The notes: generated by a model not told the origin, from the letters alone. Positions 548-28,209 are shown, numbered from the stretch's first letter. The stretch: DNA of 45,299 bases from Rotaria sp. (GCA_905330235.1 CAJNUA010000162.1:81202-126500), one strand, 5' to 3'. Numbers and translations are program-made.

Positions 548-604
548 GTATGTATTACTCGTATAAATCAAAGATTTATTTCAATTCTATTTATATATCT
601 TTAG

Positions 605-773
605 AGCGAAACAATCAATAATGTTCATGCACAATGTATGTTTGTCAATGTACCTATTGATTGGAATACAACTACAAATTTAACAACATGTACAGAAACA
701 ATAAGGATCTTTATCAAACGATATTTCATAAAAGAAAGTAAAAATACAGGTCATCAGCTATGGAGAATAGCAG
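605..773 (+). CDS. Exon 2 of the alpha/beta-hydrolase (SETINNVHAQCMFVNVPIDWNTTTNLTTCTETIRIFIKRYFIKESKNTGHQLWRIAG). Donor GTAATG at 774.
   Basis: Hand translation. The V.VPIDW...R...LWRIAGG(PG) pattern is typical of the N-terminal part of S33 prolyl/tripeptidyl aminopeptidase-like hydrolases. The phase is consistent with the acceptor at 827. Confidence 0.5.
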
Positions 774-827
774 GTAATGTCTTATGCTTAAATTAATCAC
801 ATATCATTGTGTATCTATTATATATAG

Positions 828-1438: not shown

Positions 1439-1788
1439 GTAAGAATTAAAAAAAACTTAATATCAAGATAACAATGATAGTTTGATGTTTTTTTTCTTTC
1501 GTAAGATGTCATATTTATATTTTCCACTTGTTATGCAATTAATTCCACCATTAATTTATCGAATAAATCGATGTAATTCACAAGATAAAATTGTTTTACA
1601 ACATTTTCTCAAGCAAACATCATCATCACCATTTCCATATAATCGACCTGGATACTCTATGTTGGTAAGATTCTTTTTTTTGTGAAACACGATATAAAAG
1701 GAGTGTTGAAGTATAATTCCGCAGGAATTGCTTTAATAGCTCTTTTAGTCATCATTAAAAAAGCAAACTTGTTTTCTTTATATTCAAG

Positions 1789-2020
1789 GTTGCATTAAAT
1801 AATGATTTAACTGAACTATGGTCTACACGAGATCATAATGACATACAACTTTCTTGTGAATATGTTAAAGGTATGTCGGATAATACATTTATGGCAATGC
1901 AATTGATGTCGAATATTTATTGTCCAATACAAAGAACTGGTGTACTTGGATATAATAGTGATCAATATTATAGAACATATCCAATATTAAAAACTCAAAT
2001 TCCAGTTTTAGTTTTACATG
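1789..2020 (+). CDS. Exon 4 of the alpha/beta-hydrolase (...QIPVLVLHG). Acceptor AG at 1787-1788, donor GTATGT at 2021.
   Basis: The in-frame translation VALNNDLTELWSTRDHNDIQLSCEYVKGMSDNTFMAMQLMSNIYCPIQRTGVLGYNSDQYYRTYPILKTQIPVLVLHG is the typical strand preceding the catalytic Asp in alpha/beta hydrolases. Confidence 0.5.
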
Positions 2021-2071
2021 GTATGTCAAATATATATTAAATACGAAAGAAATTCATTTTTGTAATTAAAG

Positions 2072-2188
2072 GTGACATGGATGAAACATTGCCACTACCA
2101 ATTGCTCGACATTTTTATAAAAAATATTCATCACTAAATTCAAACTTAACTTACATTGAAATGCCTCGAACAGGACATACAGCAATAG
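2072..2188 (+). CDS. Exon 5 of the alpha/beta-hydrolase (GDMDETLPLPIARHFYKKYSSLNSNLTYIEMPRTGHTAIG). It carries the catalytic Asp and His. The 3' end of the gene (a possible further exon near 2240-2330) is uncertain.
   Basis: ORF 2077..2328. The VLVLHG-x-D...G-H arrangement is the canonical acid-His part of the alpha/beta-hydrolase triad. An acceptor at 2071 gives the correct phase from exon 4. Confidence 0.5.
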
Positions 2189-4946: not shown

Positions 4947-5401
4947 GGGATGCAAAAGTGACCATAACCGGATCCTCGGTAACCGTACCAATCGTTACCG
5001 GTCTCCGCCGATAACCGTGGTAATTTTCAAAGAAAATAACGTTATTTTATTGAGGCTGACGAAAGTAAATTAGAGTGAGGAATCCAAATCGGCAATTCGT
5101 TTTTCAAAATTCAGTACTCGGTCGCTCATTGTAGGACAGCTATTATAGGCAAGTCGATCGAAAAATCAAGTATAAAATATTGAGAAACTGATTGCAGATT
5201 CTGATTCTCCGACCACGATTCACTTTCGTGAACGTTTATAAAATATCGTTATTTTCTCTAAGAATTCTTTCTTTATTGAGAAAATTAAGCCGATAATACC
5301 AGTGAAAACTTTGTGAAACCGCTAATCATAGTACCGACTATCGGTTATAGCCGGTGAAACGATGACGGTACGGTAGTGAATGATCGGTGTCATTGCATCC
5401 C
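4947..5401. mobile_element. A roughly 455-bp non-autonomous DNA element (MITE). It has terminal inverted repeats GGGATGCAA.../...TTGCATCCC and is flanked by TA on both sides (Tc1/mariner-like target duplication). No coding capacity.
   Basis: Left end cacttA|GGGATGCAAAAGTGACCATAACCGG, right end CCGATCGGTGTCATTGCATCCC|TAtcaag. The two ends are reverse complements over about 11 bp plus partial extension. TA flanks sit at 4945-4946 and 5402-5403. Confidence 0.55.
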
Positions 5402-7222
5402 TATCAAGTATTACTTAAAGGTTTTCGGCACTACGAGGATGTGGATATTTGTGCTAGCACAGAAAATACTCAAACTCTTACAAAAGTTAACTTTACTTCA
5501 AATATCAGTAAATGACCGTAATTAATATTTAATGAAATGGTTGGAAATTCAACGTTTAACCGAAATCAGACCATCATCTACTCAATTAAATAAGGCAATG
5601 TTACATGCCTCATTCATAAATATATTTATGTTATTATCTATACATCTAAATTATCATAGTTCCAATGAAGTTAATCAATTGGTTTTATTTTTATTTTCAA
5701 GACACGAATGAAAAATTTAGCGCTGCTATTAGAAATGGTATAGCTGATGTTAAATATCAATGATCTTAAAGTTTTTAGTCAAATCTGCTTTATATGATTG
5801 TCGAATAGACAAAAGAAAAGATTTCGAAAAAGTGGTTGCAGGTATAAAAAGTACAATGATATCTCTTTCAAAAGACGAAATAATACTTAAGACAGTTCTT
5901 ATTCTTATGGTCTCATCTGTGTTTACGGGTGAATAATTTTGTGATTATCTCTATATGTTGAATGATGACCATTTCCTTTTTGAATAACAAGAATATTCTC
6001 AGAACAAATCGAACCTTTAAGAAAATTCTTGTTAGGAGAATTTGCACTTTTTGGTAAAAATTGTTCCAGAACGTCAAACATTTATAGCATTTTTTTTCTA
6101 TTTTGCATCTGCTAGTTGTGATTTAACTAAAAAAGAAAAAAAGAATTTCTTTTTAACTATGCATGATAGTAAGAAACATTGATCTAAAATAGAACGTGAG
6201 ATGAATTTCTATTACCTATGTAACTTTTTCCAGGCCCCAATATAGTTGAAATCATGTTATTTCGTACGTTCATAATGCACCTGATCACGCGAATTTTTGT
6301 TGCATCTACGAACACAGAGTATTTCATTGTCAGTATAAAACAAACGTTTATCTTGTGTTCGGTACGGTAGAATATAAATGGAAACGTAAATGACTCGATA
6401 AGGTGCTGTTTGTAAATCTAGAAAGGTTATAAGTATAAAAAAAGAACGAAACATCATTATACAAATAGTATTTCTCAGTTTCTATCTGTGATAAATCTTT
6501 CAACTTCTGTATAGTTCTCGAAGTTTTCATTAGAAAGCGAAAGTTACTCGACTACAGAGGTAGTCTAGCAATTATCCATAAACAATAACGATTGACTTCA
6601 ATAGTTACCGTTCCTTATTTAGTTTAATTCCAACGCATCACTCATTTTTATTTTCGAACAAACTAAAACTTGAATTCAAATACAGAATATTTCAATAGGT
6701 GTGATTTTGATGTTGTTCTATCGATTTTTGAATATTTTTCGAATCTCAAAATTCTACAGCGAATTTAATGGTCTTATTAAACATTAATTTGGATTTATCA
6801 TGAATTACTCTTCTGTTCGATCTTCAAACTTTATTATGACCGAGATTGAGATAGAATGATCAAGTAAAGGTGACAATGCAACTGAAGTGGAGACCTTCAC
6901 CATACATTCGCACTCTCCGTTAGACAGCAACATATCTACCTGGTCTCTTCAGTATGTTAGATGACATATATCAATGTAACATAATTTTTTTTTATAATAA
7001 TGCAGAAAAACTATTGATTATAAACAAACAGAGTCAAGAAAACCATAGACGATGATATTTATATTACTTATCAAACTTAACGAAAGTTTTTATTACAAAG
7101 AAAATTTAAATTAATTGAGCTTCTAATATATTTACTTTGCATTTATGTAATTTTAGCAAAATAATAGTAGTCTTTTAATATTACATTATAAATACAACGA
7201 ATTGAAAAGTCTTCCTAGATAT

Positions 7223-7568
7223 TTAATGTTTTTCGACGAAATTAATAAGAGAATTAGCGATCTTTCCATGAAATGGAATAATATTCTTTCGTATTAATCT
7301 TGCACATAAACACTTCAAGCTAAGTTTTGTTTTAGTTTTAAGAAATTGCTTAATATTTGAATTCTTTGCAACGTCAATGGGCGTCTCTCTTAAAGCATTG
7401 ACATAATCTAGATGAGCACCAGAATCATAGAGATATTGGATTATAGTATCATCAACTATAGTTGCATTGGAAACAAATATATGAAGAGATGTGTTTCGAG
7501 CAGCATCTATTGCATTCATATTAGCACCGCAATGTAATAGTATACGAGTTGTATGTAAACATGGATAT
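7223..7568 (-). CDS. fem-1: Fem-1 homolog terminal exon (..LLHCGANMNAIDAARNTSLHI...SLKCLCARLIRKNIIPFHGKIANSLINFVEKH*), stop TAA included.
   Basis: ORF 7223..7519 plus upstream in-frame sequence from the acceptor at 7569-7570. Matches the FEM1 C-terminus (...[33 protein letters not shown]). Confidence 0.8.
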
Positions 7569-7623
7569 CTATAATAATAGATAACCTTTCAAAAATAAGT
7601 AATTTGAAATAAAAAAAACATAC

Positions 7624-7793
7624 TTGCAAATGTCATCGATGAAATAGTCATTTGCAGATGTATGATCACTTAGACTTAAATGTAGTAGAGAAGAACCAAA
7701 TGTTTGGGTAACATAATGACGTTGCACAATGAAGCAAATGTGTCGATAAAACAGTTTACGATCATCATGCGAAATCATTGATTTTGACAGACT
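7624..7793 (-). CDS. fem-1: Fem-1 homolog exon 2 (SLSKSMISHDDRKLFYRHICFIVQRHYVTQTFGSSLLHLSLSDHTSANDYFIDDICK). Acceptor AG at 7794-7795, donor GTATGT at 7618-7623.
   Basis: Matches FEM1B ...[38 protein letters not shown]. The phases join exon 1 (phase 0) and exon 3. Confidence 0.75.
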
Positions 7794-7851
7794 CTGAAAA
7801 AGATAATCTCGATACAAGAAACAAGAAAATTTAGGCTTGACACGTCGATAC

Positions 7852-9207
7852 CTGACTAACAATTGTTATTAAGAAAAGTAAAGTATGTAGATTATAATCA
7901 AAATCCTTCGTATTATGCTCTAACTCTTCAACTATTACTGTTATGACTGTCTTCCAAGGCACAATTGGTATCGATAATGATTTACGTAACATGTCACTAA
8001 AAATCGAAGCCCATTGACGCAAATCCTCAATGTCGATAGATAATGAGTACTGTCGACGTAAGCTAAGTTCATACAACCAAAAATCAGCTCCTCGATGATG
8101 TTGTGCATTGTCAGCTAGAAGGGCACCACGAAATCGAAGAGAACGACAGTATTTTGCATTAGTTGGTCCCAGCAAACGTTCACGTACGAGTAACGCTTCA
8201 GTGTACATATGATCATCGTTTAATCGAAGCTTTTCCAGCTCATCGATTGTTTGACATTCTTGTCGATTATTGAACACTTCGACAGTTGATAATCTTCGAA
8301 CTTTAGGAAGATTATGTTCTGATCGAAGTTCAAGTGCTTCATAGAAGCATTCAAACGATTTTTCAACATTAGAAATTCCATGTTCACGACAGACAAAAGC
8401 ACTTCCAAGTAATTCGTGTGCTTCGATTTGTTCAAGCAATGAACATTGTAGAGAAATAGCATCGACAAGATCAATTCGTCTCTTTTCAGCTGCTAATAAT
8501 AATGGAGACATGTGATTATGATTTGATCGAAAATTTCGAGCATTATGATTTAGTAACAATTGAACTAGTTCAAGTGAACCACGATCTACAGCAAAGTAGA
8601 GTGGTGAACGTCCATCATCTATTGATTCATTCACATCACAACTTAGTTCATCAACGAGATAAGTTGTCATTTCTAAATCTTCATTATAAACACTTAAAAT
8701 AAGATTCGTTTCATTATGTATTTTGTTAATATGTATATCAGCACCGTGTTCGTTCAAGTAACGAGCAATATTAATATTACCATTGGAACAAGCACAACGA
8801 AATGCTGTTGAATTTGTTTTAGTTGTATGATTAACTCGAGCTCCATGTTCAACAAGTAATTTCACGATTTTAAAATTATCAATGGCAGCTGCTGCCCATA
8901 AAACGGTCACATTCTCATACATCAATAAAGTTTGATCCTTTTCTTCGAGTTGTATATCATTTAGCACTTCAAGATCGAGTCCAGAATAATTAAGCAACAT
9001 CTGTACCATGTCTTCGAACTTATTTAAACAAGCAATCATGAGTAAAGTACTTTTTTGTTTATCCGGTTCGTTATATATTTGATTTAAGTAAATCTCGGCA
9101 TTGTTCATTGTTGACAAATGACTTTCGAGTGCTTTGACATCTCCTTGATGAACAAACGATAATAGCAAGCTGCTCACTTTAACACTGGAGTCATCATTGA
9201 ATTTCAT
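7852..9207 (-). CDS. fem-1: Fem-1 homolog (ankyrin-repeat substrate adaptor), exon 1. ATG at 9207 (MKFNDDSSVKV...) and donor GTATCG at 7851.
   Basis: ORF 7831..9228 (-) aligns along its whole length with vertebrate FEM1B/FEM1C (HGARVNHTTKTNSTAFRCAC vs [31 protein letters not shown] vs IEALELLGASF; RNLYTFLYL-like segment). Confidence 0.85.
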
Positions 9208-12200
9208 TGTAGTTGTAAATGCATACAAATAAAAAATAATATTTTACCTTGTATTTATAATCACACGTGCATGTTTTATTATGTAGATTTTTCTTTCTTT
9301 CTTCTGCGTTCTTACGCTATGTAAGATGAATCACAGTGCACACAGAAAATAAAAAACACTTTACTCAAACAAAACAATAAAAGAAAACTGTTTTGTTCAG
9401 TTTTTCTTTATCCTAAAATATTCGAACGTGAAATCTATCTTGAAGATGAAAACTGGCATGGTTTGTTTACAAAAAAATCTATGCATTAATACAAATTAAT
9501 TTATCAGTTTGGATCAAACATAGTTCATTTGATTCTTTAATAAGATTAGTGATACGTCTTCATGAGTTTTTACTCAATATCTGATTATAACGATCAAGCG
9601 CATAAAAGGATTGATGAGAAATGAAAGGAAAGACTTACTGATAAAGAAACATAAAAAAAAATTAAATTGTTCTTGAAAATCGTAGGATATATACATGCAT
9701 TCTATAATCAACACCATAAAGCGAGAAACAGTTAAGTTTTGAAATTGTCTAAAATTATTAATAATATTTTACTATTCTCGAATCATACTTGGTATCTGCT
9801 TATCAAAGAACTCAGTTTTGTATTTTCAAAACCGCGAGGTAATCATGAGTTTCTAATTTGAGTTATTAAATAAATGAAGACTTAATAACCTTATATCAAC
9901 TTGAAAATGATTGAAAAAATTTTGAGTCGGCATTTCACTGCAGAAAACACCAAAGATAAGTTTTAACTCAACTATAATTCTAATTAGAAATAGAAACGCT
10001 CGTAGAGATTTAGTGAACAGATTAAGATTGACATGGAAGACAGAACGACATATGGTACATCATCAGAATGTAATAAAGTTTCTACTTGAATTATAAATAT
10101 GAATTTAGTAAAACTTTATCTATGATTAGAGATATAAGCTGTTGATGACTTTGTTTTTTAATTTTGGTTTATATTCGAACTCGAATTAGATCACTATTCA
10201 AAACATTATACTATGCAACTAATTTGCTCCGTGATAAATCTCTATTAGCGCTGTTGTCACTAGTAAATTTAATGTTTCCATTAAATATAAGTTTGCACAG
10301 TGAAGATGTTTACTTTCCAACGATACGGTAATGAATTGTTGTAAATTTGAAGAAAGTATAGTAAATAGGAGAGAGGAAAATAATTCGACTGCTTTCATAT
10401 TAGAAACATGTGAAGTGTGGGTAAAGATGGAGATTCTCTTTGCGCCTTCATCCATGCCTACACGCATAAGTATTGAGAGCTTTTTTTGGTTAATCATCGT
10501 TCAAAAGGTGAACCATCACAAATTATAGGTATCCACAGTTATAACGTTTAGACAATGACAGATGATAAAATCAAGAACGAAATTTTAGAACTTGTTTATC
10601 GAATTTCTAGTTTTTTCTTCTAGACAAACTTGAAACAGATGAAGCTTATTTGTTTTATCATCTTTATGATCAACTTATTGGAAAACATGGCTGGCATTTT
10701 TATAGAATAGCTGATTAAGATGAAGAACGCCTGAGATTTGTTTCACAACAGATACTTGGTCAACCGGATTTTGAACTTTAGATGTGTTTAAATGATTTTT
10801 TTTATGCAAATGACGCAGTTAGAACATTGTTTGTTTTTTAATACACTTGAAACCCACTGAAATCATTCATTTTTTTTTTCAAAAATGCTTCTTCCTTTTT
10901 TTGACTAAATAAGAACAAATGTCTTAAATAAACAAGTTCAGATAAATTTTAATTAGTTGTACGAAATCTATCTGAATTACAGTAGATTACTTTTCTACAT
11001 ACAATTCTTTAGATTCATATTAGAGAAAAAGGCCGATAAAAGTCAACGAATATTGAATATATCATAGACAGATACTCATATTGAACGAAAATCTAGTAAT
11101 CAAGAAGAATTACTTGGAGAAATATTACGAATGAGCGAATAAACGTGAGTTAAAATAAAGTTTTAACATTGTTTTTCATTTTTCTGTACAATTTATATAA
11201 GTTAAGAGAGAAAAATAAATGTTTGTTAAGTAAATCGCAATTCAAGGTTGATCGAATGAAATGTTTGTTTAGCTTTAGTCAAAGAAATGCCTTTTTCAGT
11301 TTCATCGTTAAGGAATGATGCCGTTAAGAATGTAGCCAGGAATGTTGAGCTTTTTTCATTCTGTTCTTAGAAATTTTTAAATGATTTTCATCGTTTCATC
11401 TTAGGAAGTTAGAAAAGATATTTAAGCCTGAATCAAACATATCTTGTTACGACGAAAACTTATTCGCATTTGTTTCTTTGAAATCTATTCGTCTGATACT
11501 GTCGAACACATTTATCATTTGAATAATACTGATTGTGGAAAAGAGTAAATATCATTGTCCTCTGATATCGACAAAAATCGGACGAATACGAATCGAAATC
11601 ATTTAATCATCAACTGTACATCGTACAAAGAATTTTATTGCATTTAAGAGGCTTTATTTAAACGAATTTCAATTCTTCGAACTGCCTAAACAAACTTTTC
11701 ATTCTTTTACTGCTTCACGTAGTCACTTACTTTGTCATCTCTGCGTGTTGATGTATCTGCTGTTTGCAAAAAAATATTGGTGGACACACACTGCAAGATG
11801 AAATGTCACTATTGCGACTGATCTTTCTAATCGGCGAACAATTAAGTGGTAGAAAGAGAGAAAGGTAGCGCGAAAAATAACAAAACAACTCATCGGCAAG
11901 CACATCACTTCTTACGGCATACATTATTTAAGAGAATAGTGAAAGTAACATTTAAAAAGCTGAAAGTGAGCAGTGACTAAATTTCGTTCTTCTTGGAAAA
12001 ATTGTCTTTCAAACTTAAACTTCGCTTTGACGAAATCAAAAGTAATATTTCTGAAGATTATAGACTGGCAGTCGTTTTTTTTTTACTTAACAGTACTTGG
12101 TGTAGATTCTAAAATATTACTTAATTTGACTTCCTACGGAATATTGAAGAATTTCTGGAGACTTCACTCGAGATCTGCACTCGTTCAATTTCAGAGAATG

Positions 12201-13179
12201 TTTTCTTCCACATCTGACTTTCATTGATAAAAAATTTTTAAAAAGGGATTTTCTTTCGCGTACAAATCAAGCATTTCAGTGAATTAGATTGTATATGCAA
12301 TTCCACTTACTCCAAAAAAGTTCACGAAGAAACATCTCCTAGTATGACATCCCGTTCCTCATCGGGTATCTACCAATTTATGAAATACATGGAGATTAGA
12401 AAAAAATTAGAAGGGTTAATATTTCTGTCCTGTCCGGTTCGTTTTATGACTATTGCATTAAACTTTTGGCATCTTTTCTGACTGATTACCCTAAAAGTAT
12501 TCATGATCATTTTCATCTATCACAGAAGCATCATCTGCTAAAGCTAAAGCATTATCCTACCAGATTCTCGTAAAGTACACAAACTTTAGTGTAATGCTAT
12601 GTCTCACATGAGATCTGCCAAAGCAATAGTTCCTTAACAATTCTGTTGTTGCTTAGAATACATTTTTTATTATACATGTATTTCGTGTCGTCTCTTCAAT
12701 AGAAGATAATCGTACTTTCCACATCGTAAATTTCAATGAGATGAATGTTGCAGCTGCTGATTTTTATAACAAAAAGCAAGATGCTCACAAGTCAGTATAT
12801 CTACTAGAAGACGTGCGATATTATTTTTTTTTTACTGAACTAGTCTCGTGGTTCTCATTCATAGTATAAATATGAGCTTAACTTGCATTTACCATTTGAG
12901 AAAATTACTTCGTAAGATTTCCCTTAATACCATTCACCGAATTTTCTTTTTAGGGTTATGCAAAAAATACTTAATAATGAGCATACTTGTTCGTTCACCT
13001 TGGTAAGAAAAATAGGAGACATAACTTCCTGTGTGTTGTCGTTCATGTCAGAATTCTTTTCTTTTCCAGTTAAGAGAGTTGCGTATTCAATTATTATTTA
13101 AATGAATTTTTCTCATATCTTTTTTCCCTTCAATGACGAGTAGAAACAACATTGAACTTAATGCCTCTTTAAAAGTGTA

Positions 13180-13323
13180 ATGGCATCAGCATTCAATGTG
13201 AATCACCGTCTTTCTAATGATGAAATCAAAGATGAACCGAAACAAATGCTCACACCTATTGAAGATTATGAAGAAGAATCTCTCTTATCTCTCGAATTAG
13301 CATGTGAACCACTTAAAAGCATT
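13180..13323 (+). CDS. Putative exon 1 of the ART-CAP fusion gene (MASAFNVNHRLSNDEIKDEPKQMLTPIEDYEEESLLSLELACEPLKSI). It ends at the weak donor GTCTAA at 13324. Otherwise an in-frame TAA at 13327 follows.
   Basis: The frame is continuous with downstream exons if a 39-nt micro-intron (13324-13362, gtctaa...tcaaag) is removed. There is no in-frame ATG downstream before the ART domain, so translation must start here or in an unseen upstream exon. Confidence 0.35.
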
Positions 13324-13362
13324 GTCTAAGGTGAATTGAACAGAAATATTTTTATATCAAAG

Positions 13363-13559
13363 ACGAATTCAAAAACATCAGCAGACGGTTTGACTCAAGA
13401 TGAATCAGCCTCAATTCATCTTTACAGAACGGAATGGAAGAAATCCGAAGAAAGCCTCTATTGTATTTTGAATCGAATATTAAGAAAAGCAGATCGACGT
13501 TTTTTCAAACATTGGTTCAAATATCTCAAGTTATTTCTTACGGCACTTTTCAAATTATC
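13363..13559 (+). CDS. ART-CAP gene exon 2. It encodes the N-terminal helical region of an ADP-ribosyltransferase fold (ESASIHLYRTEWKKSEESLYCILNRILRKADRRFFKHWFKYLKLFLTALFKL). Donor GTGAGT at 13560.
   Basis: ORF 13336..13563. The pattern aromatic-x-x-x-LY..LN..LR......L...Y...L..AL.KL resembles the region preceding the catalytic Arg in R-S-E ARTs (vertebrate ART1-5, clostridial C3/iota-type toxins). The 48-nt intron 13560-13607 (GTGAGT...ACATAG) contains the TGA stop and preserves the frame. Confidence 0.55.
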
Positions 13560-13607
13560 GTGAGTCATTGTTTTGAAGACATCTACCAATTTGTATTTTG
13601 TACATAG

Positions 13608-14473
13608 ACCGATTGAACGAGGAACTGTTTGGCGTGGTGTAATCGAACATCTCCACGAGCTCTATCCTCGTGGATAATTGCAAGCATGGTGGGCCTTCAG
13701 ATCTTGCACAAGATCTCTCCAAGTACTGGAGTCACCTCAGTATCTTGGTATATCATGTACTCGAACGCTCTTCTTGATTAAGGCATCGAAAGGAAAAGAC
13801 ATTAGTCGATACTCGTGCTTCCGGAATGAGGATGAAATTTTACTTCTTCCTGGTACATACTTCGAAGTAAATAGTCAAATAATTGCGGGAGGATGGTTGC
13901 ATATTATTCATCTTCACGAATATAACCCTCCATATGAACTTCTAGTTTCACCTTTACCTGACTTGCATCCACAGAAGCATACTCCAAGTACGAAAGCCGT
14001 ACAAAAATTTAAGAAAGCAGTGTTAGACAGCAAGAAGGAAAAAACAAGCGTCCAGAGTAAACAGGTCGTGAGCCTGAATGAAGACGATTATGATGGTTCT
14101 AAATTTTGTATAGATGCACTGATTACTCATAATCAGTATCGCCTGCAACACAATACAGCAACACTAATAGCGAATGAACATTTATCTAAAGCAGCCACTG
14201 ACTGGGCACGCGAATTGATCAACATGAATGTACTTAAATATTCTCCCGACCAATGGCGACGTTATCGAAGCTCAGTGTTAGGCGAAAGCCTAGCCTATTT
14301 CATGGGACCTGTACTAAAAGGCGATCGTCAAAATGATATATGGACCGTGAAGTGCAACAACATGATCTTAGTATCTACCTTCAAGAGAAGTCCCTTCATT
14401 TTTCACAACTGGTATGGAAAAGCACCGAACAAGTCGGCTTTGATCGTTATCAAACTCTCGACAAAAAACAATG
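13608..14473 (+). CDS. ART-CAP gene exon 3, with ART catalytic core, linker and CAP domain. R motif TVWRGV; STS-like motif AFRSCTRS; catalytic ExE in TLFLIKASKGKDISRYSCFRNEDEILLLPGTYFEV; then a Lys/Ser-rich linker and a CAP/SCP domain (HNQYRLQHN...GESLAYFMGP...SQLVWKSTEQVGF). It is disrupted by an in-frame TAA at 13675-13677 and an apparent 1-nt frameshift near 14344-14372. Donor GTACAT at 14474.
   Basis: Hand alignment to rat/human ART2: YRG-17aa-FTSSS...GTLFIIKTCLGVYIKEFSFRPDQEEVLIPGYEVYQ vs WRG-19aa-FRSCTRS...RTLFLIKASKGKDISRYSCFRNEDEILLLPGTYFEV. CAP part vs GAPR-1/GLIPR2: HNEYRQKHGV/HNQYRLQHNT, GENLAW/GESLAY, HYTQVVWAKS/HFSQLVWKST. Confidence 0.6.
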
Positions 14474-14565
14474 GTACATTGATAATATTGCAACATAGAA
14501 TAAGCATAGTTTCATTGTGAATCATTTTTGATCAACTTGAAATCGAAAACTTTTCTAATCTTTAG

Positions 14566-14626
14566 GGATGGTGTTGCATTGTACTATCCACCAGGGAACT
14601 TTCCTAACCAGTATCTGTCAATGTAG
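14566..14626 (+). CDS. ART-CAP gene terminal exon. It encodes the CAP-domain C-terminus (W)DGVALYYPPGNFPNQYLSM*.
   Basis: A 92-nt GT...TTAG intron (14474-14565) joins in the correct phase (tg|g = Trp). The peptide matches the GAPR-1 C-terminus YVVCRYCPAGNYVNQNIY. Confidence 0.55.
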
Positions 14627-16999
14627 AGTCATAAGACAATCATGGAACGGAGAATGAACTGTTATTGAAATGAAGTATTCGGTTACACTAGTTATGTATT
14701 GTGCATTTTATAGAACTAACTGCTGAATGTGACGGAGAACTGCAGTCAACTCTGGCCATCGCGAATGTAGCAATAAAATCATATGATGGTGTCGCATCTG
14801 GTAAGTATCAAAATATATATTGTTGAACGCGAGAGTATATGATAATGACCACTTTGGAAGTATTCTCTCAGTACTGATCGGAGAATCATTTCCACGATGA
14901 TTGGCATATCATTCTAGACTCATTTACATAACAACCATTTCATTGTTGTTTCATCAAACAAGAAAACTGTTTGTTTTCTTTCAGATCTCATTTTTAGATC
15001 AATTAAAATTTTCTAATAATTCTAGTTTCGTAGAATCTTGTACAAGTCATTTTATGTTTAACTGAATAGTAACTATTTTAAGCGATATAATCACAATACA
15101 AGTGAAAAAATAGTGAAGAAGGCTTTTCAAAAATGTGTTTTATACCTCATAATTATGAGGTACCTTTTTATAATAGATTGGACTCAAATGGAACCAATTA
15201 AAGGAATATTGCAAGGTAAATAAATATATATCGATTACTGGCAATCGAAATCATAGAATTTCAATTCATACGAAAAACCTTTAACAATGTTACTCTGATG
15301 AATAACTATTACTCAATTTTTCAACATAAGGTTGATAGTTATCTTTATTTTAATAATATCATTTTTATTGTGAAAAATGAAAACGTAACAGAGAATTTTT
15401 ATTTCTAGCAATAAAAAGATTTGATTTTATTCTAACAGAATAAAAAAACAACTAGAACTAAATAAGAACTAAGAAAGTGATACTTACTTAAGGTACGATA
15501 TTCAAAGTACTCAACAAAAAATCATTTCTCTTAATTGTATCGCTTAGACATTCAACAAAAACATAACACTTTCAACGATAATGTAAGGTACACATTTTTT
15601 GGATAAAAGAGACCGCAGAATTATATCCGCCTAAGTCATTCGAAACATGTATGTATTCGACAAAATTGTGCGAACTTTAAAATTTTATTCTTTATAGGGA
15701 TTATTGAAGTTATTTGGTTTTTTGAAGTCAGGATGTGAGTGTGAAGCCTGAGACAAGATTCAGACCCACACCCAAAATGTTTCAGGATATTATTTTCAAA
15801 GTCTTCACCAATGAACTTATTACTCAATGCCCACTAACTTCTTCGTTTTCGTGGATGCAACACAGAACCGTCATGGTAAGATTTGTACTTGAATCGGCCG
15901 AATGACAATAACTAAGATTCTGGATAGAAATAGAGAACAGCCTTGATCATTTCTTAACAAAAACTGAATTCATATAAAAGTATCACGTAAAACATCAATT
16001 ATACATACGTATTTACCAACGACAAAAGTATTACGAATAGTATTTTTGATATAAAATATAGAATTTGTGTTTGAAACAATAGCATAAAGATAGATATGAA
16101 TAGTACAAGAATAGACACTTACAATATAATTAGAAGTTTACAACGAAGATACAAGGTGTTCATATATAGTTTATGTTTTTCTCAATGCATTTTTGAAGAA
16201 AATGTGTGCATAAATCATTGCACGCTTCAGTGGTCACACTCTCCAGTTAAGAACATCATTTTGTAGTATGCAAATGATCAAGTTGTAGGCCTGATTTTAA
16301 CGCTAGTGAGTCAGTACTGAACATTATCAAACAGAAAATCAAACTCAAGAACTTGAAATTACAAGGTCAACAAAAGAATGCGCACGATGAAGTATAAAAT
16401 TGATCTATTAACACTGTATCTTCATTTTAAGCTTTTAATTATATTGGAAGAACCTGTTCTTGCACTATTCATATCTATCTTCATAAAATTATTTCGTCCA
16501 TAAACTATAAATTTAACATCAAAATACGATTCGGAATACTTTTCTCGTAGGTAGTATAATCAATCGTTTTGTAATGAACTTGTTTCACTACCAGCATGCA
16601 TTTCTCAGTGAGAAAGTAAATTACAAATAGATCGCGATGCAATTTTAGCAATTCGGAATTTTGTCAAACTGAATAGTTTATTACACAATAGCTGCCAAAA
16701 ATAATATTCTTTACATAACAGATACAACATTAAAACAAGGTTCATCGAATTGCAATATATTAATTATTCCAAGGATATTTCTCATGAGCACAGTTCTGTT
16801 CAATAGACCAAAACTGATAAATTCGTTTTTTTTTCTTTATTTCAATCCTGAAAACATTGTAAATATCACAGAAGTAGAATAATTCTGTCTTGTGAAATGA
16901 AACACATGATAATAATAATTCGATCGAGTTTATTAGTTATGTAAAAAAAGAAGAATTTCAAAGCTTATTTGTAAGCAAAATAAATATTAGTCTTTGTAA

Positions 17000-17461
17000 T
17001 TATGTGAGTATGGCATTGACACATCGTCGGCAACTTCCACAACATTTTTGATAACTTCTGCATTGAGCATCTGTTATACATGGTGGAAAGCAAAAAGAAG
17101 GACGTCCAATAATAACAGGTGAGGATACTACCAATGGACAACAACCTGGATGCTCATTTGGACAACAATAAGCTCTATCGTATTGATTTATTTTACATGT
17201 ACCACCATTGGCTGCACATCTTCTTTGTCCTTGTCCACAAGTCACATTTCTGATTGGTTGACCATATTTGCATGGATTGCACCTATCTGGCAATGGAAAT
17301 AATAAACAAAAAATACTTGGATCAATGATAATTGGAGGAATCGTTCGAATTGGTTTTAGTGCAGCACGCGGTTTGTCAACATGAATGGGATTGTCTTCTG
17401 CTGCACATAAAGCAATAATAGCAAAAGTTGCTAGTAACAAGCTTATAATTAACTTTTTCAT
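17000..17461 (-). CDS. Secreted cysteine-rich protein with a C-terminal WAP (four-disulfide-core)-like module. Signal peptide MKKLIISLLLATFAIIALCAA. Single exon.
   Basis: ORF 17000..17461 (-). It has a hydrophobic N-terminus and 22 Cys. The C-terminal CFPPCITDAQCRSYQKCCGSCRRC fits the WAP C..C..D..C....KCC...C..C pattern. Confidence 0.5.
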   Translation of the reverse strand: MKKLIISLLLATFAIIALCAAEDNPIHVDKPRAALKPIRTIPPIIIDPSIFCLLFPLPDRCNPCKYGQPIRNVTCGQGQRRCAANGGTCKINQYDRAYCCPNEHPGCCPLVVSSPVIIGRPSFCFPPCITDAQCRSYQKCCGSCRRCVNAILT

Positions 17462-19536
17462 GATGCTTTGATAGTATCAAACTCGAATAGCCTTATGTAA
17501 AAAGATTACTTATTTTGCACAATCGATGAGATTTATATAGTATCATAGTCTTTGGTAGAGCATGACTTCAACTAAAAAACAAAACTAATAAAACGTAGGA
17601 GACACCATATCGTCTTTTTTTTATGAATAATATTGATCTATCTTTGGCAAAATCGTAGATTAGCCTTGACGTATAAAATATTAATCTAATGATAGAGTAT
17701 GTCGTAATACAAAACATGTCTATATTTACGCATTTAGTTTTTTGAATCTTTTCTTTCATTGACGTCATTTATGATAGATAGGTTTTGCGCATCATATTCA
17801 TCGATGCTTGACTAAGCTCCTTGGCTTTCTAAAGATACTACTTATCAAAAGTAGATAAGTGAAACAATAACAGATATATACGCTAATATAAAAATAGTAC
17901 TATGATCATCTTTTCTCAAATATTCACTAGGACTAAATTGTTTGTTTTATCGAAAGACTTACGACAAGTTAAGTTGGAAGTAGATTCAAGAGGTTTATTG
18001 AATTATGCTTTGCAATTTGAACGTTGATTATAATACAGAATAATCAACAACAACAAAAATAATGATGAAAAAAGAGGAAAATATAAAAAAATAAGGATTC
18101 AACACTTCATATACTTTATTTGTTTAGAAATATTTAAAATATGACTTAAAAAAGATTGACATTTTTTTCTTCTTATTTTGTGCAATTATACTGATGAAAA
18201 CGAATAGATTAGTCATCAAAATCAGAAATCGTTGTATGTAAATAAATTTTACATTAATATTCTTACCCATGATAAAAAAATCGAGTTCGTTTTGAAGCTA
18301 AAAGCAAACTGTATATTTATTCTATTTTTAGTTGAACTATAACCTTGACAATCAACTATATGCATGACAATGTTCTGAATTCAAACATTCTTTCATAAAG
18401 TTTTTATAGAATAATAAAACATCTGGTTCCTTTAGATTTGCAGTATATTATCATCAAAATTATGTAATAATTGAATTTATTTCACGATGGTGTGAGTTTG
18501 CATGCGACTGAGTGTACGAATAAGTGAAGAAAAGATTTCCTCTTCAGTTACACACAAATTCACCTAACTAGCTCATCTCACTTTAAAAATCATGAAGACA
18601 CTGATTATTTGAGAAATATACTACGTAGTTGGACGTGAATAGATGTGAAGATCTTGTTTTCATCTACGCTCATTCGTTTTATTAGAATCAACAAAGCAAT
18701 TGTCGTAGATGCTGTTATTGTCTGTTGTAGCAGTTAGTAGATTGAATACGAACGATAACGAATCGTGATTAACTTATAATTTGATAAATACGAAGAATGA
18801 TTTGTGCGAGATATATTCCTATCATATCTGAATATCTTTTCACAAACTAAAACTTCAAGTCAAACTTTTCTTAGACAAGTTAGATTTAGCTGATAAACCA
18901 AATGTGTCACTACATAATGACGTCATGTGCTTGTCAGTTAGACTTCCACCATTGACAATACATATCTAATAGACACTGTTTCATTGTGAAAAAAGACAAG
19001 GAATGATTTGCCTCTTAGAAGTTTTTAGATTTCCTTGAAAAAAAAACAATGATTTGTTTTTGATTGTATTCAATTGGAACATGAAAAAAGTATTTACTAA
19101 ATTTTTGGATTGCTGCGTATTAGTAAGAGCTTGTTATTTGAATCAGTTTCAAAAATATAACACTGATCAATACAATCACAACAAGCTTATCATTTGTTCT
19201 ACTTGCACTCGATTTAGTATGAAATGTGATCTAAGAAATCTGTGAAGCAATAATATAACATATATTGAGTCAAGCTATCAAGTATCATTGAGTCTCAACG
19301 AAAAATTACAATTTCTTCCCTAATAATAACGATATAAAATACTGTCAATATATATGATCACCTATTCATTCATGGATATCGTGAATGAAGAGTCTTTTTT
19401 TCGTGGAGGTGTGCTGATTCTCAGATGCATGCTTTCAGTTCGCTCAAATTGTTACAACGGCTAAATAGACTAGGTCTTCTCGAAAACCTTTCGTTACTCA
19501 TGCGTGTTTTTTTCCAATGATTTCTATTTTTTTTTA

Positions 19537-20027
19537 TTAAATAAAACGTCGTAAACCAAAGTATAATACGAATGCAAAGATAGACGAAAAGAAAATTATT
19601 TTGTTGCTTATAGCTCTTTTCAACACGAAAAGTAAAGAAAGAAAGACAAGTAAAAATAAAGAAGCAATAACGGATCCAGAGAGATTTATGTATGTAAAAT
19701 GTTCATCTGGTCCTAACATGACTAATTCTGGTCCAAAAATGATTCTTGAATTTTTCTCTTTGTAATCAAACACTTGCACGGCTTGATTTTGTGGTACTCG
19801 ATAGGTAACTAATCTGGATTTGTCACGTTTTGTCGTTTGAAATGACGACGTTACTGTTGTTTTGGTACGTCTATCAACTAAAGAATCTCGTTGAAGAAAC
19901 TCTTCTATGCTTAATGGTAATTCTTTTTCCCAGAGTTCTTCATCTTGTGTTAACATGTATGTATTACCAACAATTGCACGAACACGGCCAGTTTTTAAGT
20001 CTCGAACATAGATACCTTCATTTTCAT
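19537..20027 (-). CDS. MVP: MVP terminal region as seen here ([38 protein letters not shown]...[35 protein letters not shown]). The ORF then continues into a hydrophobic tail [45 protein letters not shown] and ends at TAA 19537-19539. A 39-51 nt micro-intron separates it from exon 5. The true 3' boundary is uncertain: there is either a splice donor near 19676 or read-through to this stop.
   Basis: ORF 19537..20154. Homology to MVP residues about 380-520 ([38 protein letters not shown]...[34 protein letters not shown]) ends at ...INLSG. AATAAA lies immediately after the stop on the minus strand (about 19527-19535). Confidence 0.55.
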
Positions 20028-20078
20028 CTAGAACAGTATCTAATAAATAAACAAGATATAAAAGATCAAGCAACTTAC

Positions 20079-20165
20079 CCAAAGGTATCGCTTTTCTTTT
20101 TTGTAAGACTTCGACTTGGACTGGTGGTATGTATTCTTTTGGTCCTCTTATCACCCATTTGTCGC
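20079..20165 (-). CDS. MVP: MVP exon 5 ([29 protein letters not shown]). Acceptor ttttaag, donor GGTAAGT.
   Basis: Matches MVP [30 protein letters not shown]. It is separated from exon 4 by a roughly 1.6 kb intron that contains a repetitive element. Confidence 0.75.
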
Positions 20166-20244
20166 CTTAAAAGAAATTTGAATTGTTCAAAAATTCATAT
20201 AGAATATACAGTTTTAATTCTTGTGTAGGGAGAGCCTAGTAGAG

Positions 20245-21705
20245 TCCTACGGAGTCAACTTTTTCGATTCCGAAACCCGACCGCAACTCCAAAAATTTTA
20301 ATTTTTTCATTTCCCCAGGTTGAAAAAGTACGATCGTAAACGACCGTATACAAAAAAATACGACGGATTACGATGATCGTATACGATGTCTGTATACGTC
20401 ACTGGTATACGATGCTATACAATAATCGTAAATGACCGTTCAATCCGACCATCGTAAACGGCGTTCGTATACGATCGTATTTTGTCGTGTTCAACGCTAA
20501 GTAATTTTCTTTGTACAAAAGAATTTTTTTAATATTTATATCTGTTACAATCGTACAATGTGCAGTAAATATGTTTTGTTATAAGGGACAATTTTTTTTC
20601 TATACGATCCCTCTCGATGGCACAACGAACCTTAAATGTTATTTTAAACTAAACAAGTTTTTTTTCTTTTTTATTTAAATTTATATCAATAGAAAAAAGA
20701 AAAGCAAGTATTAATATATTTAAATAAATTTTACTTTTTAACAACGATACATCGAACAGTAAGTTAGAATTTATGTAAATAATTTTTTTTTTTTATTTTT
20801 AGATTTATTATAAGAATAAATGAAACAGTAAGTATTTACTGAGATAAATTGGGGTGCCCAGCCAGACTGGGCATCCCAAATATTAGTCTTTATATTATTT
20901 GGAGAATGAGAAGGGGGAAATAGGACAAATTTATGTGGAATAATGTGAGAAACGACGTTGTATACCACCGCGTACGATCGTTTACGGTGGTTGTATATAC
21001 GTCGTATTTCGTCGTATACGACACGACGATATACGGTTGTATACGATTGCATACGACGTCGTATACGATCGTTTACGACTGTCGTAATGCTCGTCCTGGG
21101 CCGATTCTAACTCCGAAAAATTACGAATTTTTTTTTTTGTCTGAAATGAGCAACATATAATCTATTCTATTGTTCAAATTTTAACATAGACATAGGCAAT
21201 TGGATAAAAAGTTGAATGAATGAAGAAAAGTCAAAGAATTATTAAAAAATTGATCGTAAATTTCTTTTTCAGTTTTTGTGCGTAAAAAAAAATAAAAAAG
21301 ATTGCAAAGTTTTTGACAAGAAAACAACTTGAAAAACTGATACATGAAAAACATGAAGCTGTAAAACTCGACACGTACTATACCCAAACAATCAAGAATT
21401 GATGATGAAGACAGTTATAGTATTCAGATGAAATTAAAATATTTTTTGATTAATCTCATTATGTTTTCATATAGCTGATTTTTAGAATAGTATAACTAAA
21501 AGTTGATCGTCCTTTTTTTACCTTAAAGCTCATTCTTAATCTATGTAATAAATTATGTTGTTTCTTTTATTATTGTGAAAAGTAAAGCTATTGGTTTTGT
21601 GAAAAGTAAACATTTTTGTCGGAGGCAGTTACAATTTTGACTCTGACTCCGATCACGACTCCGATGGGGTCGGAGTCATAATTGGGTTTCGGAGTTCCCC
21701 GCAGG
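20245..21705. mobile_element. A roughly 1.5 kb TIR-bounded non-autonomous DNA element inside the MVP intron. The terminal inverted repeats are imperfect and about 45 bp (TCCTACGGAGTCAACTTTTTCGATTCCGAAACCCGACC... / ...GGGTTTCGGAGTTCCCCGCAGG). Internally it carries inverted sub-repeats (20300-20500 vs 20930-21135) rich in the CpG-containing motif CGTATACGA / CGTTTACGA.
   Basis: The reverse complement of 21650-21705 aligns with 20245-20290 (shared cct[a/g]cgg...tccgaaaccc...gacc). The flanks ctagtagag / tctctagag may be an imperfect 8-9 bp target duplication. The element is markedly GC/CpG-rich relative to the surrounding AT-rich sequence. Confidence 0.5.
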
Positions 21706-21771
21706 TCTCTAGAGCCTAGCCATTGGTAATTTGTCTACACTAAAAACATTAATAAAATTCTTTTCTCTTAC

Positions 21772-21957
21772 CCGGCACACGAGTCACATTGTCTATTTCA
21801 TCATCAAACGATTCAATACATTTTACTACGATACCTTCATCTTCACTCAATACGTACACATCTTGAATTTCTTTCTCTAATTGTTCATTAGGTTGTAAGA
21901 AAAAGGATTTGTCACCAACGACTAATTTCTTTTTGCCCCATTGGTTTTTACCGTTAG
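21772..21957 (-). CDS. MVP: MVP exon 4 ([63 protein letters not shown]). Donor GTAAGA.
   Basis: ORF 21749..21991. Matches [48 protein letters not shown]. Confidence 0.8.
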
Positions 21958-22018
21958 CTTGAAAAGAAAATAGAAATAATAATAAGTCCAATCATAGTTT
22001 GACATCTAGCATTCTTAC

Positions 22019-22441
22019 ATGTGACTGGATTTAAGATGACACAATATTGTCTTGAATTCAATGTTTTTATATCAACAATTGCCACAAGTTGTTCATAGAC
22101 ATTCAAAATATGTGTTTCAGTTTGCTCTTTTGTCACGAGCCATTCGTCCCCATTATTTCTTGTTTGACCAAAATCATCTGTGAATGTGTTTAGTGCACGT
22201 AAATGTAAAGCTTTTTTATCTGTTACAACATAGCCATTTTCAATGCTCACAACTGTTTCATAAGCCAATGGTAAATAAGCACCCAATTGTTTTACTAACC
22301 AGTTTTCACCCACCACACGACGTTGATCCATACGATCGACAAGTTCTTTTTTAGCACTTAATCTTAGTGCTTGATTTGGACCGATCACGGTAGCAACAAT
22401 GTGTTCTTCAACCGATACTTCTTTGCGTGGTGTATAAGTGC
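22019..22441 (-). CDS. MVP: MVP exon 3 ([37 protein letters not shown]...[44 protein letters not shown]). Donor GTAAGA.
   Basis: ORF 21954..22388 plus the upstream in-frame segment from the acceptor tttttcag at 22442-22449. Matches MVP repeat domains 3-5 (QNQALRLRARKE, TGEEWLVT, HNYCVILDPV). Confidence 0.8.
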
Positions 22442-22535
22442 CTGAAAAATTAAAATATTTGTATAGTTAACGTACACTTATCATGACTCGAGTGAATTCA
22501 CTAAATGAATTATAGCTGAATACGTAGTTACTTAC

Positions 22536-22656
22536 CTGGTCCTTCGAAAAGCCATTCGTCTCCAGCTTTTCGCTGTTCTCCATTATCATCAAAATCCAAA
22601 ACGGCTTTTAATCGTAATGCTGAACTAGCCGCAACATATTTTAAAGGTGTGGCAGC
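22536..22656 (-). CDS. MVP: MVP exon 2 ([41 protein letters not shown]). Acceptor ...ttccag, donor GTAAGT.
   Basis: Hand translation of the rc. Matches [32 protein letters not shown]. The phase (0 in, 1 out) is consistent with its neighbours. Confidence 0.8.
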
Positions 22657-22715
22657 CTGGAATAATATTAATAGATACTATGAAAAATTACTTTAAATAA
22701 TGATATTCAAAGTAC

Positions 22716-23063
22716 CTGTTTTAAAACTTCACCAGGATACAATGGAAATGGTTCTTCATAATCGTTTTCCTGTCTAACATCTAGGCTACCATGCAACAAT
22801 TTTGCTTGACCATTTTTGTCGAATTGTGCTTGATTATTTTCATTCTTCACAACTGGATTTTCAATAACACAGTAGTGTCTTGGTGGTAGAGTAATCATTT
22901 TATCAGGCCCAAAAACTATTGTCTCATTGCCTTGTTTCAAGAACTTGTGTGGACCGATTTCCAATCGTGTTATACTTGTATTCTGGTCTAATACGTGAAT
23001 ATAATAATAAGGTGGAATACGATAGACAGGACCTGTCTGAGCCGGTAAACTCTTAGAAGACAT
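22716..23063 (-). CDS. MVP: Major vault protein (MVP) exon 1 (MSSKSLPAQTGPVYRIPPYYYIHVLDQNTSITRLEIGPHKF...PFPLYPGEVLKQ). ATG at 23063, donor GTACTT.
   Basis: ORF 22707..23156. Near-identity of IPPYYYIHVLDQN...PPRHYCVIENPV...PFPLYPGEVL with the vertebrate MVP N-terminus (IPPYHYIHVLDQN...PPRHYCTVANPV...PFPLYPGEVL). Confidence 0.85.
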
Positions 23064-26000
23064 ACGATTGTCAAATGCTAGCACTAAAATAAACAAAAAT
23101 AAACAAATAACTACCACATATTGCTTTATTTCATCGTATTTATTTTTATGCGACAAATATGATTTGCCTCTCTATTCTTTATGAAAGCGCAAATGCAACA
23201 TAAAAACATATGTTTCAGTTTGTGAGCAACTATCTGTTGTTATTGCTAATCAATGATAAAGAATGTTAATCGTACTATAGCGCAGCGAATAAGGATGAAA
23301 GTCGAAAAACAAGAAGTCTTAAATTCAATTATGTTGTAAGCTGACTCCATAAAAAGCTTAGATTTCGCAAGGATATTTATCATAGTCGATGATGAAGAAG
23401 AAAGCATTGTTAAGATGCTACCCATGATCTGTAACATATCACTACTAAGGTATCTGTTACATGGATGAGAAGGCCCAAGAGGGGGAGAAGGAGGTTCAGA
23501 ATTTTTATCCTACATTTCAACACTTCTCTTAGATTATCTTTCACAAAACAAAAAGATAGCCGTAAGTAATGTAATTTATCTATGTTGATACCTAAGCAAA
23601 TAGTGACTCATTATGCACCTATTTCCAAAAGTTTATCAGTTCCCGTCCAATGCATACATTCATTAGATGCTTGGGAATAAGAATGCCGACTTTCCAATGC
23701 CAAGAGAAGCAAGAAAAAGTAGTAAAACGAGCACTAAAGAAAGAAACAACTAGCGAAAACACGAATGCAGATACGTCCTGAAATACATTTGAATGGCCTG
23801 ACGTAGCTGACTTTAGTGGGTGAGAGTGACGTTTCTGTATGTTAGAGAAAATCGGTAAAGTAATGACTGTTATGATGAATGAATCACGACCAGTTTCGGT
23901 TAAAACTGGAATATTCAACTACTACAGTAGATTCTACCGCCAAATTTCTGCTTTCAAATGCTTCCCATTTTTCTCAGTATTCCAGTCGGAAATTCATGGA
24001 TTCGACCAGTGGAGTCATTGACCTGGGCACAGGAGCATTGTACTTTCTCACACTCATGTTTTTGGTTGTCAGATGTTTTATTATCAAAAACTGGGAGTAA
24101 TAACCAAAGATGATCCTCTCAGTTACGTCTTTCAGTCGCATTTTTGTAGTTGCTTGACTGAGTGAGTAACCGGTAAAAAGAAACACACGGTGAGCTCAAC
24201 GACGACAGGAAAAACTACCAACACTCTTTCATCATTGCTTACCTTACGAAGAAAAACGAACGTGTAATGTGCATTATTTTGTTTCATGGTCGTTTCTTTA
24301 TAATTTTAATATGAATCATTTTCCAAATCTTGCGCGCCATGTTCATCAGTGTTATGAAATAACAGACAAGAAAAAAAAATGATTGACCCATTCGCATTAA
24401 CCAATGAATCAAGTGAAACAAAAGGTGGCGTGGTGTAAGTGTGGCAACAATAGATCAAAGTATGCATCCAAGTCGGTGTATACCTCTATCGTTATGCGCT
24501 TATTGAATATGAATTCAGTTCAGCATCTACAGACATGAACTTTTCCAATGATAAAATTAGGTTTTTTGAAAAAAAAACTCCTATTTTATGAATGGTTCGA
24601 AGATATTTCGCTTCATCTCGGCGAATGTTGCAAGTTGTACTGTTGGTAATTAGACACTGTCTATAGGTAATGATGTTATGACATACAGATGAAAAAACCT
24701 TTCAAAGCATATCCCTTTATTCGATTTTGAAGAGTTTTTTTAATAAGCCACCATCAATAGTAATACACATTGACTTTCTTTTATTTTAGCTATCTTGGAC
24801 CTCTCTAATACTATGAGATCAAGTAATGTATAGATGTTTTTCATTATTTGCAAGTCTTCGATGATCCAAACGAATTTATTGATTTTATAACGATACGATA
24901 CAGAAATCAAAATAGTGTTTTTTTAATTGACTCTGGTGAGGATGCTTCAAATCTCTTTAAAATGATCTACGAATGACCGCGCATCAAAAAGCATTATTTT
25001 GTTGATTAGATTCACACCAGTGTAGTCAAAATACCAGTATGCATACATTTTAAGATATTCGTTTAACAATGTGTGGGTTTATGCGATCACTGGGACACAG
25101 TATGCAATTGTCTATACAAATGGATATGAAATACAGCAGATTTTTGTTCGATCATGAATCAATGTCAGCAATAATTTGTGATTTGCAGGACAAGAGCGAC
25201 GTATTTATCTGCTTTTATTAACAAACTGTGAAACACATTTTCAAAACAATGTAGCGAAGAAACGATTGAGACATTTTTTCCTGCATGTTATCCAGTAAAT
25301 GAACTAAAATTATATGTAAACAATACATTCGTCTATCGTTCAATTAATTAAGCGTTGAGCTGAAATGAAAATATGTGAAATGTTGAAGTTTCGACCTTTC
25401 ATTGCTGCTTTCTATGATCGATTACGAATTCTACATAGTCATAAGTCCGAGCATTCATATAACCTAACACTTTAACGTGATTAAAGCATATTCATCCAAA
25501 CCTCTCCTTCCATACAAGTTCGAGCTATTGTCCCTGTCAAAACAAGATAGGTTTGCATTTTAACTTAATAACTTGAAGTCATCAGTGCAATAGCATCTAC
25601 TTTTATAGCGGCAAAATAATAAACATTTAATGTAACTCTCTATTTTGTTCTTAATGAAGACGGTCGTTTTAGTGGAAAAATATTTTTATCTTTTGCTGAT
25701 TGGGATTAAAATCAAAAAATATATTTCTTTTAATGCTAGACTCATAACATTCGGTATTTTATTTTTTTCACAAATGTCATAATATCGTTATACCCGGTAT
25801 CGAGAGGTAAACGTCAGAATATCCTACAGAGTAACTAAGAGAAGTGAATCTTTTAGTGAGGAAGGGACTAGATGATGAACTTGTTAAATGATTAAAATAT
25901 CGTTCGATATCAATATATTTCATAATGAATGAATCAAAGCTGTTCACATATAGTCTAGTCTGAATATGGGTTTAATACAAACATAAAAAAAAAGATTTTA

Positions 26001-28152: not shown

Positions 28153-28209
28153 CTTTAAAAAGAAAACAAAATTCATATTCAATTTGATCAGTATAGTATT
28201 TTTACTTAC

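Follow-up and report, generated by a model that had tools for sequence, protein, structure and literature searches.

The TAA codon at 13675-13677, which lies within an ADP-ribosyltransferase (ART) domain encoded in the 45,299-nt stretch of DNA analysed here (the window), very probably reflects a true nonsense mutation that has become fixed in an unprocessed pseudogene belonging to the bdelloid rotifer Rotaria sp. 'Silwood-2'. We propose that the ancestral gene was a three-exon chimera, in which a complete R-S-ExE NAD:arginine ADP-ribosyltransferase domain continued, without a change of frame, into the last ~160-190 residues of a rotifer SCP/CAP protein. The locus now bears TAA at codons 50 and 150, has lost 1 nt from its CAP part, ends in a TAG that is probably early, and shows an excess of replacements at family-conserved positions. 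Translation would end at codon 50, upstream of the catalytic Arg, and for that reason the locus would be expected to supply the rotifer with no active ART; transcripts, if made, would be potential targets of nonsense-mediated decay (NMD), since the first stop is situated 230 nt upstream of the first exon junction. On this reading, artefact and recoding would both be dismissed as explanations of the stop. Its importance outside annotation is little, and the locus would serve as a small worked example of gene turnover, in which a chimera formed and then became a pseudogene in an anciently asexual lineage. For in-frame stops met in isolated exons of large families, it suggests that the pseudogene explanation should be tested first. 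The parts of the locus, in window coordinates, are as follows.

13180-14626 (+): putative ART–CAP pseudogene, three exons
13180-13559 (+): exon 1; the ATG at 13180 aligns with Met1 of rotifer ART homologs
13327-13329 (+): first in-frame TAA, codon 50, from translation and homolog alignment
13560-13607 (+): intron 1, 48 nt, GTGAGT...ATAG, with an in-frame TGA if retained
13608-14473 (+): exon 2, with the catalytic half of the ART domain, a linker and most of the CAP/SCP domain
13633-13635 (+): catalytic Arg R136, CGT, an invariant column, equivalent to R126 of rat ART2.2 (profile alignment to 1OG3)
13675-13677 (+): reported in-frame TAA, codon 150, identical in the loci of six assemblies (L001-L006)
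13699-13701 (+): codon 158, AGA (Arg) or AGT (Ser), equivalent to T146 of ART2.2
13702-13704 (+): motif Ser S159, TCT, retained, equivalent to S147 of ART2.2
13828-13836 (+): E-x-E motif GAG GAT GAA (E201, E203), retained; E203 aligns with E189 of ART2.2
13990-14083 (+): ART-to-CAP junction zone, where similarity switches from ART tails to rotifer SCP/CAP in the same open frame
14344-14345 (+): frameshift, a 1-nt deletion in a Tyr codon, from a tblastn frame switch
14474-14565 (+): intron 2, 92 nt, GTACAT...TTTAG, at the QW/Y GVALYY position of the CAP domain
14566-14626 (+): exon 3 (…DGVALYYPPGNFPNQYLSM), terminating with TAG at 14624-14626

The in-frame TAA in its homologous context

A first-pass annotation of this DNA had placed an in-frame TAA at 13675-13677 between the catalytic Arg and the Ser motif of an ART domain, and translation, alignment to homologs and comparison with Pfam PF01129 all bear this out. 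The codon occupies position 150 of the ART frame on the + strand (CCT CGT GGA TAA TTG CAA GCA TGG TGG at 13666-13692), which around the stop reads ...VWRGVIEHLHELYPRG*LQAWWAFRSCTRS... (also written ...GTVWRGVIEHLHELYPRG*LQAWWAFRSCTRS...), and the conceptual translation of the window, with X at stops, scores 32.8 bits against PF01129 over a cut-off of 22.3. In a protein search the ART core matched 390 proteins at E ≤ 0.001 (best 1e-53), and the matches named by organism were all from bdelloid rotifers, namely Adineta steineri, several Rotaria species and Didymodactylos carnosus. Both flanks of the TAA align without gaps to 24 homologs (YPRG*LQAWWAF in the window versus YPKGKEFAWWAF in A. steineri), and because of this gapless alignment we read the stop as a real codon position, residue 150. 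The column is itself variable, holding T (39), A (26), S (19), K (12), D, E and others in 120 relatives, and K (AAA), E (GAA), Q (CAA) and S (TCA) are all a single substitution away from TAA. By profile alignment the codon falls in the loop that leads from the Arg strand to the Ser motif, at the equivalent of G138 of rat ART2.2.

The spacing from the catalytic Arg to the STS motif had been taken to match that of vertebrate ARTs. We found instead 23 residues in the window (R136 to S159) against 21 in rat ART2.2 (R126 to S147), and it is with the rotifer paralogs that the spacing is identical. The active-site Arg, Ser and Glu-x-Glu codons are present as R136, S159 and E201-D-E203, by alignment to R126, S147 and E189 of the rat enzyme, and the Ser is that of the aromatic-x-S-x-S/T motif by which it is defined in ARTs (PMC2576468). 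The PF01129 frame is interrupted by TAA at codons 50 and 150. Judged from its sequence, the locus belongs to PF01129 and, through its CAP part, to PF00188 by descent, without being a functional member of either.

It had further been held that no suitable GT...AG pair surrounds the stop and that an intron is thereby excluded. The conclusion stands and its stated ground does not, as 45 pairs with a length divisible by 3 enclose the stop, 13637-13684 (48 nt) and 13670-13723 (54 nt) being examples. An intron spanning the TAA was rejected because each of the 45 pairs removes family-invariant residues (G137, W154, W155 or S159), and it is therefore homology, not a lack of splice dinucleotides, that rules it out.

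The two introns of the locus are both kept, with GT-AG boundaries, and since they are retained the locus is not a retrocopy, hence unprocessed. Removal of intron 1 regains a gapless alignment (FKLS-PIERGTVWRGV versus FKLPPSKDTSVWRGV), and tblastn matches of proteins P0001-P0007 to the window cover 13180-14010. At the intron 2 point P0146, one of the homologs, has additional sequence resembling a retained intron. A scan for bacterial promoters and terminators upstream was uninformative, and is irrelevant to a metazoan gene.

Further lesions and their reproducibility

The upstream TAA at 13327-13329 (codon 50) also lies in a gapless alignment, with KSIV*GELNRNIFISKTN in the window versus KDLFDQQLKEFITVAKIN in homologs, and falls in a column occupied by P, D, H or Y among 120 homologs. 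On the other side of the reported stop, the frame is open over 280 codons (13678-14517) and leads from the ART domain through a linker into the CAP/SCP domain. Here tblastn with the rotifer SCP/CAP proteins P0140, P0144 and P0145 follows frame +1 to 14343 (…GDRQNDIW) and then frame +3 from 14346 (REVQQHDL…); homologs read IW-Y-RE at this site and the window reads TGG/AC/CGT GAA, i.e., a Tyr codon minus 1 nt. An intron in place of the frameshift was considered and rejected, the CAP homologs aligning codon by codon around the 2-nt remnant of the Tyr codon. With the frameshift repaired, the CAP region of the window scores 32.3 bits against PF00188 (cut-off 21.1), and the CAP/SCP hallmark segments HFxQxVW and YxPxGN are present as HFSQLVWK and YYPPGNF; as it stands, the PF00188 frame is broken by the 1-nt deletion at 14344-14345. 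The TAG at 14624-14626 (…NQYLSM*) falls 13 codons short of the stop of CAP homologs (…NQYATNVQARSALEDHRLA), with weak residual CAP similarity going on in the same frame 3' of it, and may be a third nonsense mutation.

Additional stops or indels in orthologous copies had been named in the first-pass annotation as the mark of a pseudogene, and lesions of this kind are found within this copy itself, in the upstream TAA and the frameshift, neither of which had been linked to the reported stop in that annotation. No gene is called between the flanking WAP-like and ankyrin genes in any of the six annotated assemblies.

The sequence data for Rotaria sp. 'Silwood-2' come from four wild animals, caught and sequenced singly on the Illumina platform after whole-genome amplification, and two of these animals are clonal sisters (Nowell et al. 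2021, PMC7943196). Through exact matches to the neighbouring 153-aa ORF at 17000-17461 we fetched the locus with 10-kb flanks from six assemblies (L001-L006). Three of these are reference assemblies, made from RPSE411, RPSE809 and RPSE812, and the remaining three are probably 'maxhap' assemblies of the same reads. Since a reference assembly and its maxhap counterpart draw on common reads, L001-L006 amount to fewer than six independent samples, and represent at least three independent libraries. Over 13100-14700 the window and L001-L006 are 99.9-100% identical, with only three variable sites in this 1.6 kb (a homopolymer indel at 13119, A/T at 13701 and G/T at 14649) and three distinguishable haplotypes. 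Column-by-column comparison found both TAA codons and the frameshift region identical in the window and L001-L006, and thus on all three haplotypes; every lesion described above is common to every copy examined, and no sense allele at 13675-13677 occurs among the six assemblies and the window. The locus combines family homology with disabling lesions (two nonsense, one frameshift) reproduced in at least three individuals, as is expected of an unprocessed pseudogene. Elsewhere in the window, breaks in its alignment to the three reference assemblies coincide with N gaps at scaffold joins (L001 18380-18386, L003 8359, L004 7622), and the apparent structural differences past those N gaps may be scaffolding artefacts.

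Competing explanations and the timing of decay

The first-pass annotation had offered a very recent nonsense mutation, segregating as a null allele, as one explanation of the stop, and of this proposal the nonsense mutation is upheld and its recency and segregation are not. A young TAA, with an intact allele or copy present in the population or collapsed away in the assemblies, is very unlikely, though it would sit well with assemblies that are collapsed or only partly haplotype-resolved, with a sample of four individuals from one site that includes two sisters, and with the preserved active-site codons. All three haplotypes nevertheless carry both TAAs and the frameshift, in assemblies that differ at 13701 and 14649, showing that real variation gets reported, and not at the stops; three independent lesions on every copy are unlike a young null allele, and no annotated intact protein exceeds 59% identity in any bdelloid proteome searched. 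Less likely still is programmed readthrough or other recoding that would yield a full-length active ART from the locus, also raised initially. The preservation of R136, S159 and E201-x-E203 and the long ORF downstream of the TAA (280 codons) speak for it, but two separate TAA codons, in TAA-G and TAA-T contexts, would have to be bypassed, and the CAP domain would additionally require a +1 frame correction. TAA is the least leaky stop, and the stimulatory readthrough contexts are UGA-CUAG and UAG-CAR-YYA, to neither of which TAA GGT GAA or TAA TTG CAA corresponds; the context of the reported stop, for which inspection had been advised, hence matches no known stimulatory motif. TAA-T also terminates the neighbouring WAP-like gene call, and the lack of a gene model in six annotations likewise counts against recoding.

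A base-call or assembly error at a codon that is truly sense had been listed as well, and whole-genome amplification from single animals can indeed introduce errors. The same TAA, however, stands in both reference and maxhap assemblies, six in all, and in at least three separately amplified and Illumina-sequenced individuals, and random amplification errors would not hit the same base repeatedly; the ART region moreover lies within contiguous sequence free of N gaps. On the strength of this recurrence across individuals we set aside base-call, amplification and assembly errors as extremely unlikely. To a variant genetic code, in which TAA would not be a stop here, we assign a negligible chance. 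TAA is not a stop in many ciliates, and both in-frame stops of the locus are TAA codons in an AT-rich genome (about 31% GC); the organism is nonetheless a bdelloid rotifer, a metazoan, and TAA, including TAA-T, ends 17 of the 20 gene calls in the fetched Rotaria loci, calls which assume the standard code. Homologous proteins align over their full length with TAA as terminator, and the CAP frameshift is independent evidence of decay. As for downstream initiation, the 280-codon ORF after the stop has no Met before the CAP domain.

The preferred reading, a fixed nonsense mutation in an unprocessed pseudogene, would include a number of replacements at conserved positions among the signs of decay. 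The window deviates at seven of the 55 columns that are ≥95% conserved in an alignment of the 120 best relatives (P67S, T83R, L109F, P111H, S158R, S183L and H195Y), against a mean of 1.0 (sd 1.6) in the relatives, two of 120 reaching seven, and this excess could partly reflect membership of an unsampled divergent subfamily, given that each of the sampled subgroups shares 49-57% identity with the ART core. One deviating residue, R158 in 'AFRSCT', is the x of aromatic-x-S-x-S/T (T146 of ART2.2), directly before the motif Ser, S159 itself being intact; Ser at position 158 is ≥95% conserved in the family, and the variable site 13701 makes codon 158 AGA (Arg) in the window, L002, L003 and L006, and AGT (Ser) in L001, L004 and L005. 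The catalytic R, S and ExE codons and all 29 invariant columns of the homolog alignment (A1) are unchanged, and decay is therefore modest. The fold that the first-pass annotation called well preserved reflects the still modest extent to which constraint has been lost, in a single orphan of a family that has hundreds of intact paralogs.

As to timing, 5.9% of the single-base changes in the repaired 1308-nt CDS create a stop, so that two to three nonsense changes would, as a rough estimate, correspond to 34-51 substitutions, or ~3-4% neutral divergence. Sampled haplotypes differ by 0.15-0.44% over the surrounding 12-20 kb. Because the estimate is well above that range, constraint would have been lost long before the sampled haplotypes diverged; because the protein divergence from any paralog, at ~45%, greatly exceeds it, constraint would have held for most of the history of the gene, and most of its ~45% divergence from every other ART would have accrued while it was functional.

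The ART–CAP chimera, its relatives and its neighbourhood

The chimeric ART–CAP architecture is the sole mildly unusual aspect of what is otherwise an ordinary pseudogene of a very large family. Similarity to ART tails extends to about 14010-14055, and similarity to SCP starts at about 13990-14083 (SCP residue ~84-110), just past the hydrophobic N-terminal part of the homologs, both parts sharing a single open frame. A fusion event at the DNA level is probable, because the CAP intron sits where P0146 carries its apparent retained intron. A search of cluster representatives with the ORF spanning the C-terminal ART and N-terminal CAP parts returned 1426 proteins at E ≤ 0.001, with matches to either the ART half or the CAP half, and no ART+CAP protein was found among the ART-core matches, the CAP matches or the best 150 of these 1426. 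Five matches in two stretches, among eight proteins checked in Pfam, were rejected as ART-ART, ART-kinase, ART alone or LRR. It is possible, if doubtful, that the locus before its decay was a functional, lineage-specific ART–CAP chimera of which a live copy may persist in unsampled Rotaria relatives; if true, this would represent the birth of a gene by domain shuffling, and then its death, within the massively expanded ART repertoire of asexual bdelloids. On a described ART expansion in bdelloids, a literature search gave passing mentions only.

The nearest relatives of the two halves are separate rotifer proteins. The ART paralogs of A. steineri (P0001 and P0002) and Rotaria sp. Silwood-1 (P0005) have the same domain, are collinear from Met1 to the PPxxLL tail, and share all invariant residues and the Arg-to-Ser spacing with the window; they are, however, intact single-domain proteins of 240-295 aa, whereas the window copy, 49-59% identical to them, has two TAAs and runs on into CAP. 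The SCP/CAP proteins (P0140 from A. steineri, P0144 from R. sp. Silwood-1 and P0145 from A. ricciae; PF00188) are 58-69% identical to the window over their C-terminal ~160 residues and share its GVALYYPPGNFPNQY end and an intron at the same position. Their N-terminal ~100 aa include a hydrophobic segment and no ART, whereas the window has the ART there instead and its CAP is frameshifted.

Rat ART2.2 (PDB 1OG3/1GXY), whose R126, S147 and E189 correspond to R136, S159 and E203 of the window, is an active enzyme of distant similarity (E = 2.6e-6 with the family profile; about 30 bits), and its spacing differs by two residues. The closest analogue is human ART2P (RT6), an R-S-ExE (PF01129) pseudogene of the vertebrate ecto-ART (ARTC) family whose coding sequence is still recognisable; the lesions that Haag et al. 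are said to have described there in 1994 are premature stop codons. ART2P is a primate gene, whereas the window gene is from a rotifer, lacks a signal peptide and the architecture of a GPI-anchored ecto-enzyme, and is fused to CAP. ART2P moreover has a functional rodent orthologue, and none was found for the window locus.

In the syntenic or paralogous regions fetched around relatives of the WAP-like gene from R. sp. Silwood-1 (L007-L012) and R. socialis (L013-L015), neither ART nor CAP sequence was detected by tblastn. Both the WAP block (nt identity 77%) and the ankyrin gene (identity 85% nt and 81% aa) recur in L010-L012 of Silwood-1, with the ankyrin block inverted relative to the WAP-like block when compared with the window (6662-10355 versus 15817-18528), and the 5.5-kb segment at 10355-15817, which holds the pseudogene, has no counterpart in these three loci within the fetched 10 kb. 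An ART (P0080) on the same Silwood-1 contig as a WAP paralog was rejected as not positional, being ~90 kb away. The segment at 10355-15817 has no self-similarity within the window, and metagenome scans, both with an exact DNA pattern carrying NNN at the stop codon and protein-based, returned no copy.

Several features of the neighbouring genes are recorded here in their own right. The 153-aa ORF at 17000-17461 (-) is intact and cysteine-rich, with a signal-peptide-like hydrophobic N-terminus and no Pfam match; its homologs in other Rotaria are 57-65% identical, that of R. socialis being named a WAP domain-containing protein in UniRef, and it has evolved fast beside the adjacent ankyrin gene, for which aa identity is 81%. 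The ankyrin-repeat gene at 7226-9243 (-) is modelled inconsistently, its product having 392 or 557 aa depending on the Silwood-2 assembly. Two further ORFs, at 43745-44332 (+; 196 codons) and 27901-28305 (-; 135 codons), have no Pfam match. A major vault protein (MVP) gene at 19540-23171 (-), found at 4398-7922 in L001 and 4372-7925 in L002, is called with 526-551 aa and Vault repeat domains only, and its ORF at 19540-20166 ends in a hydrophobic tail. MVP normally has about 850-900 aa with shoulder and cap-helix parts, and this copy may therefore be truncated or mis-modelled.
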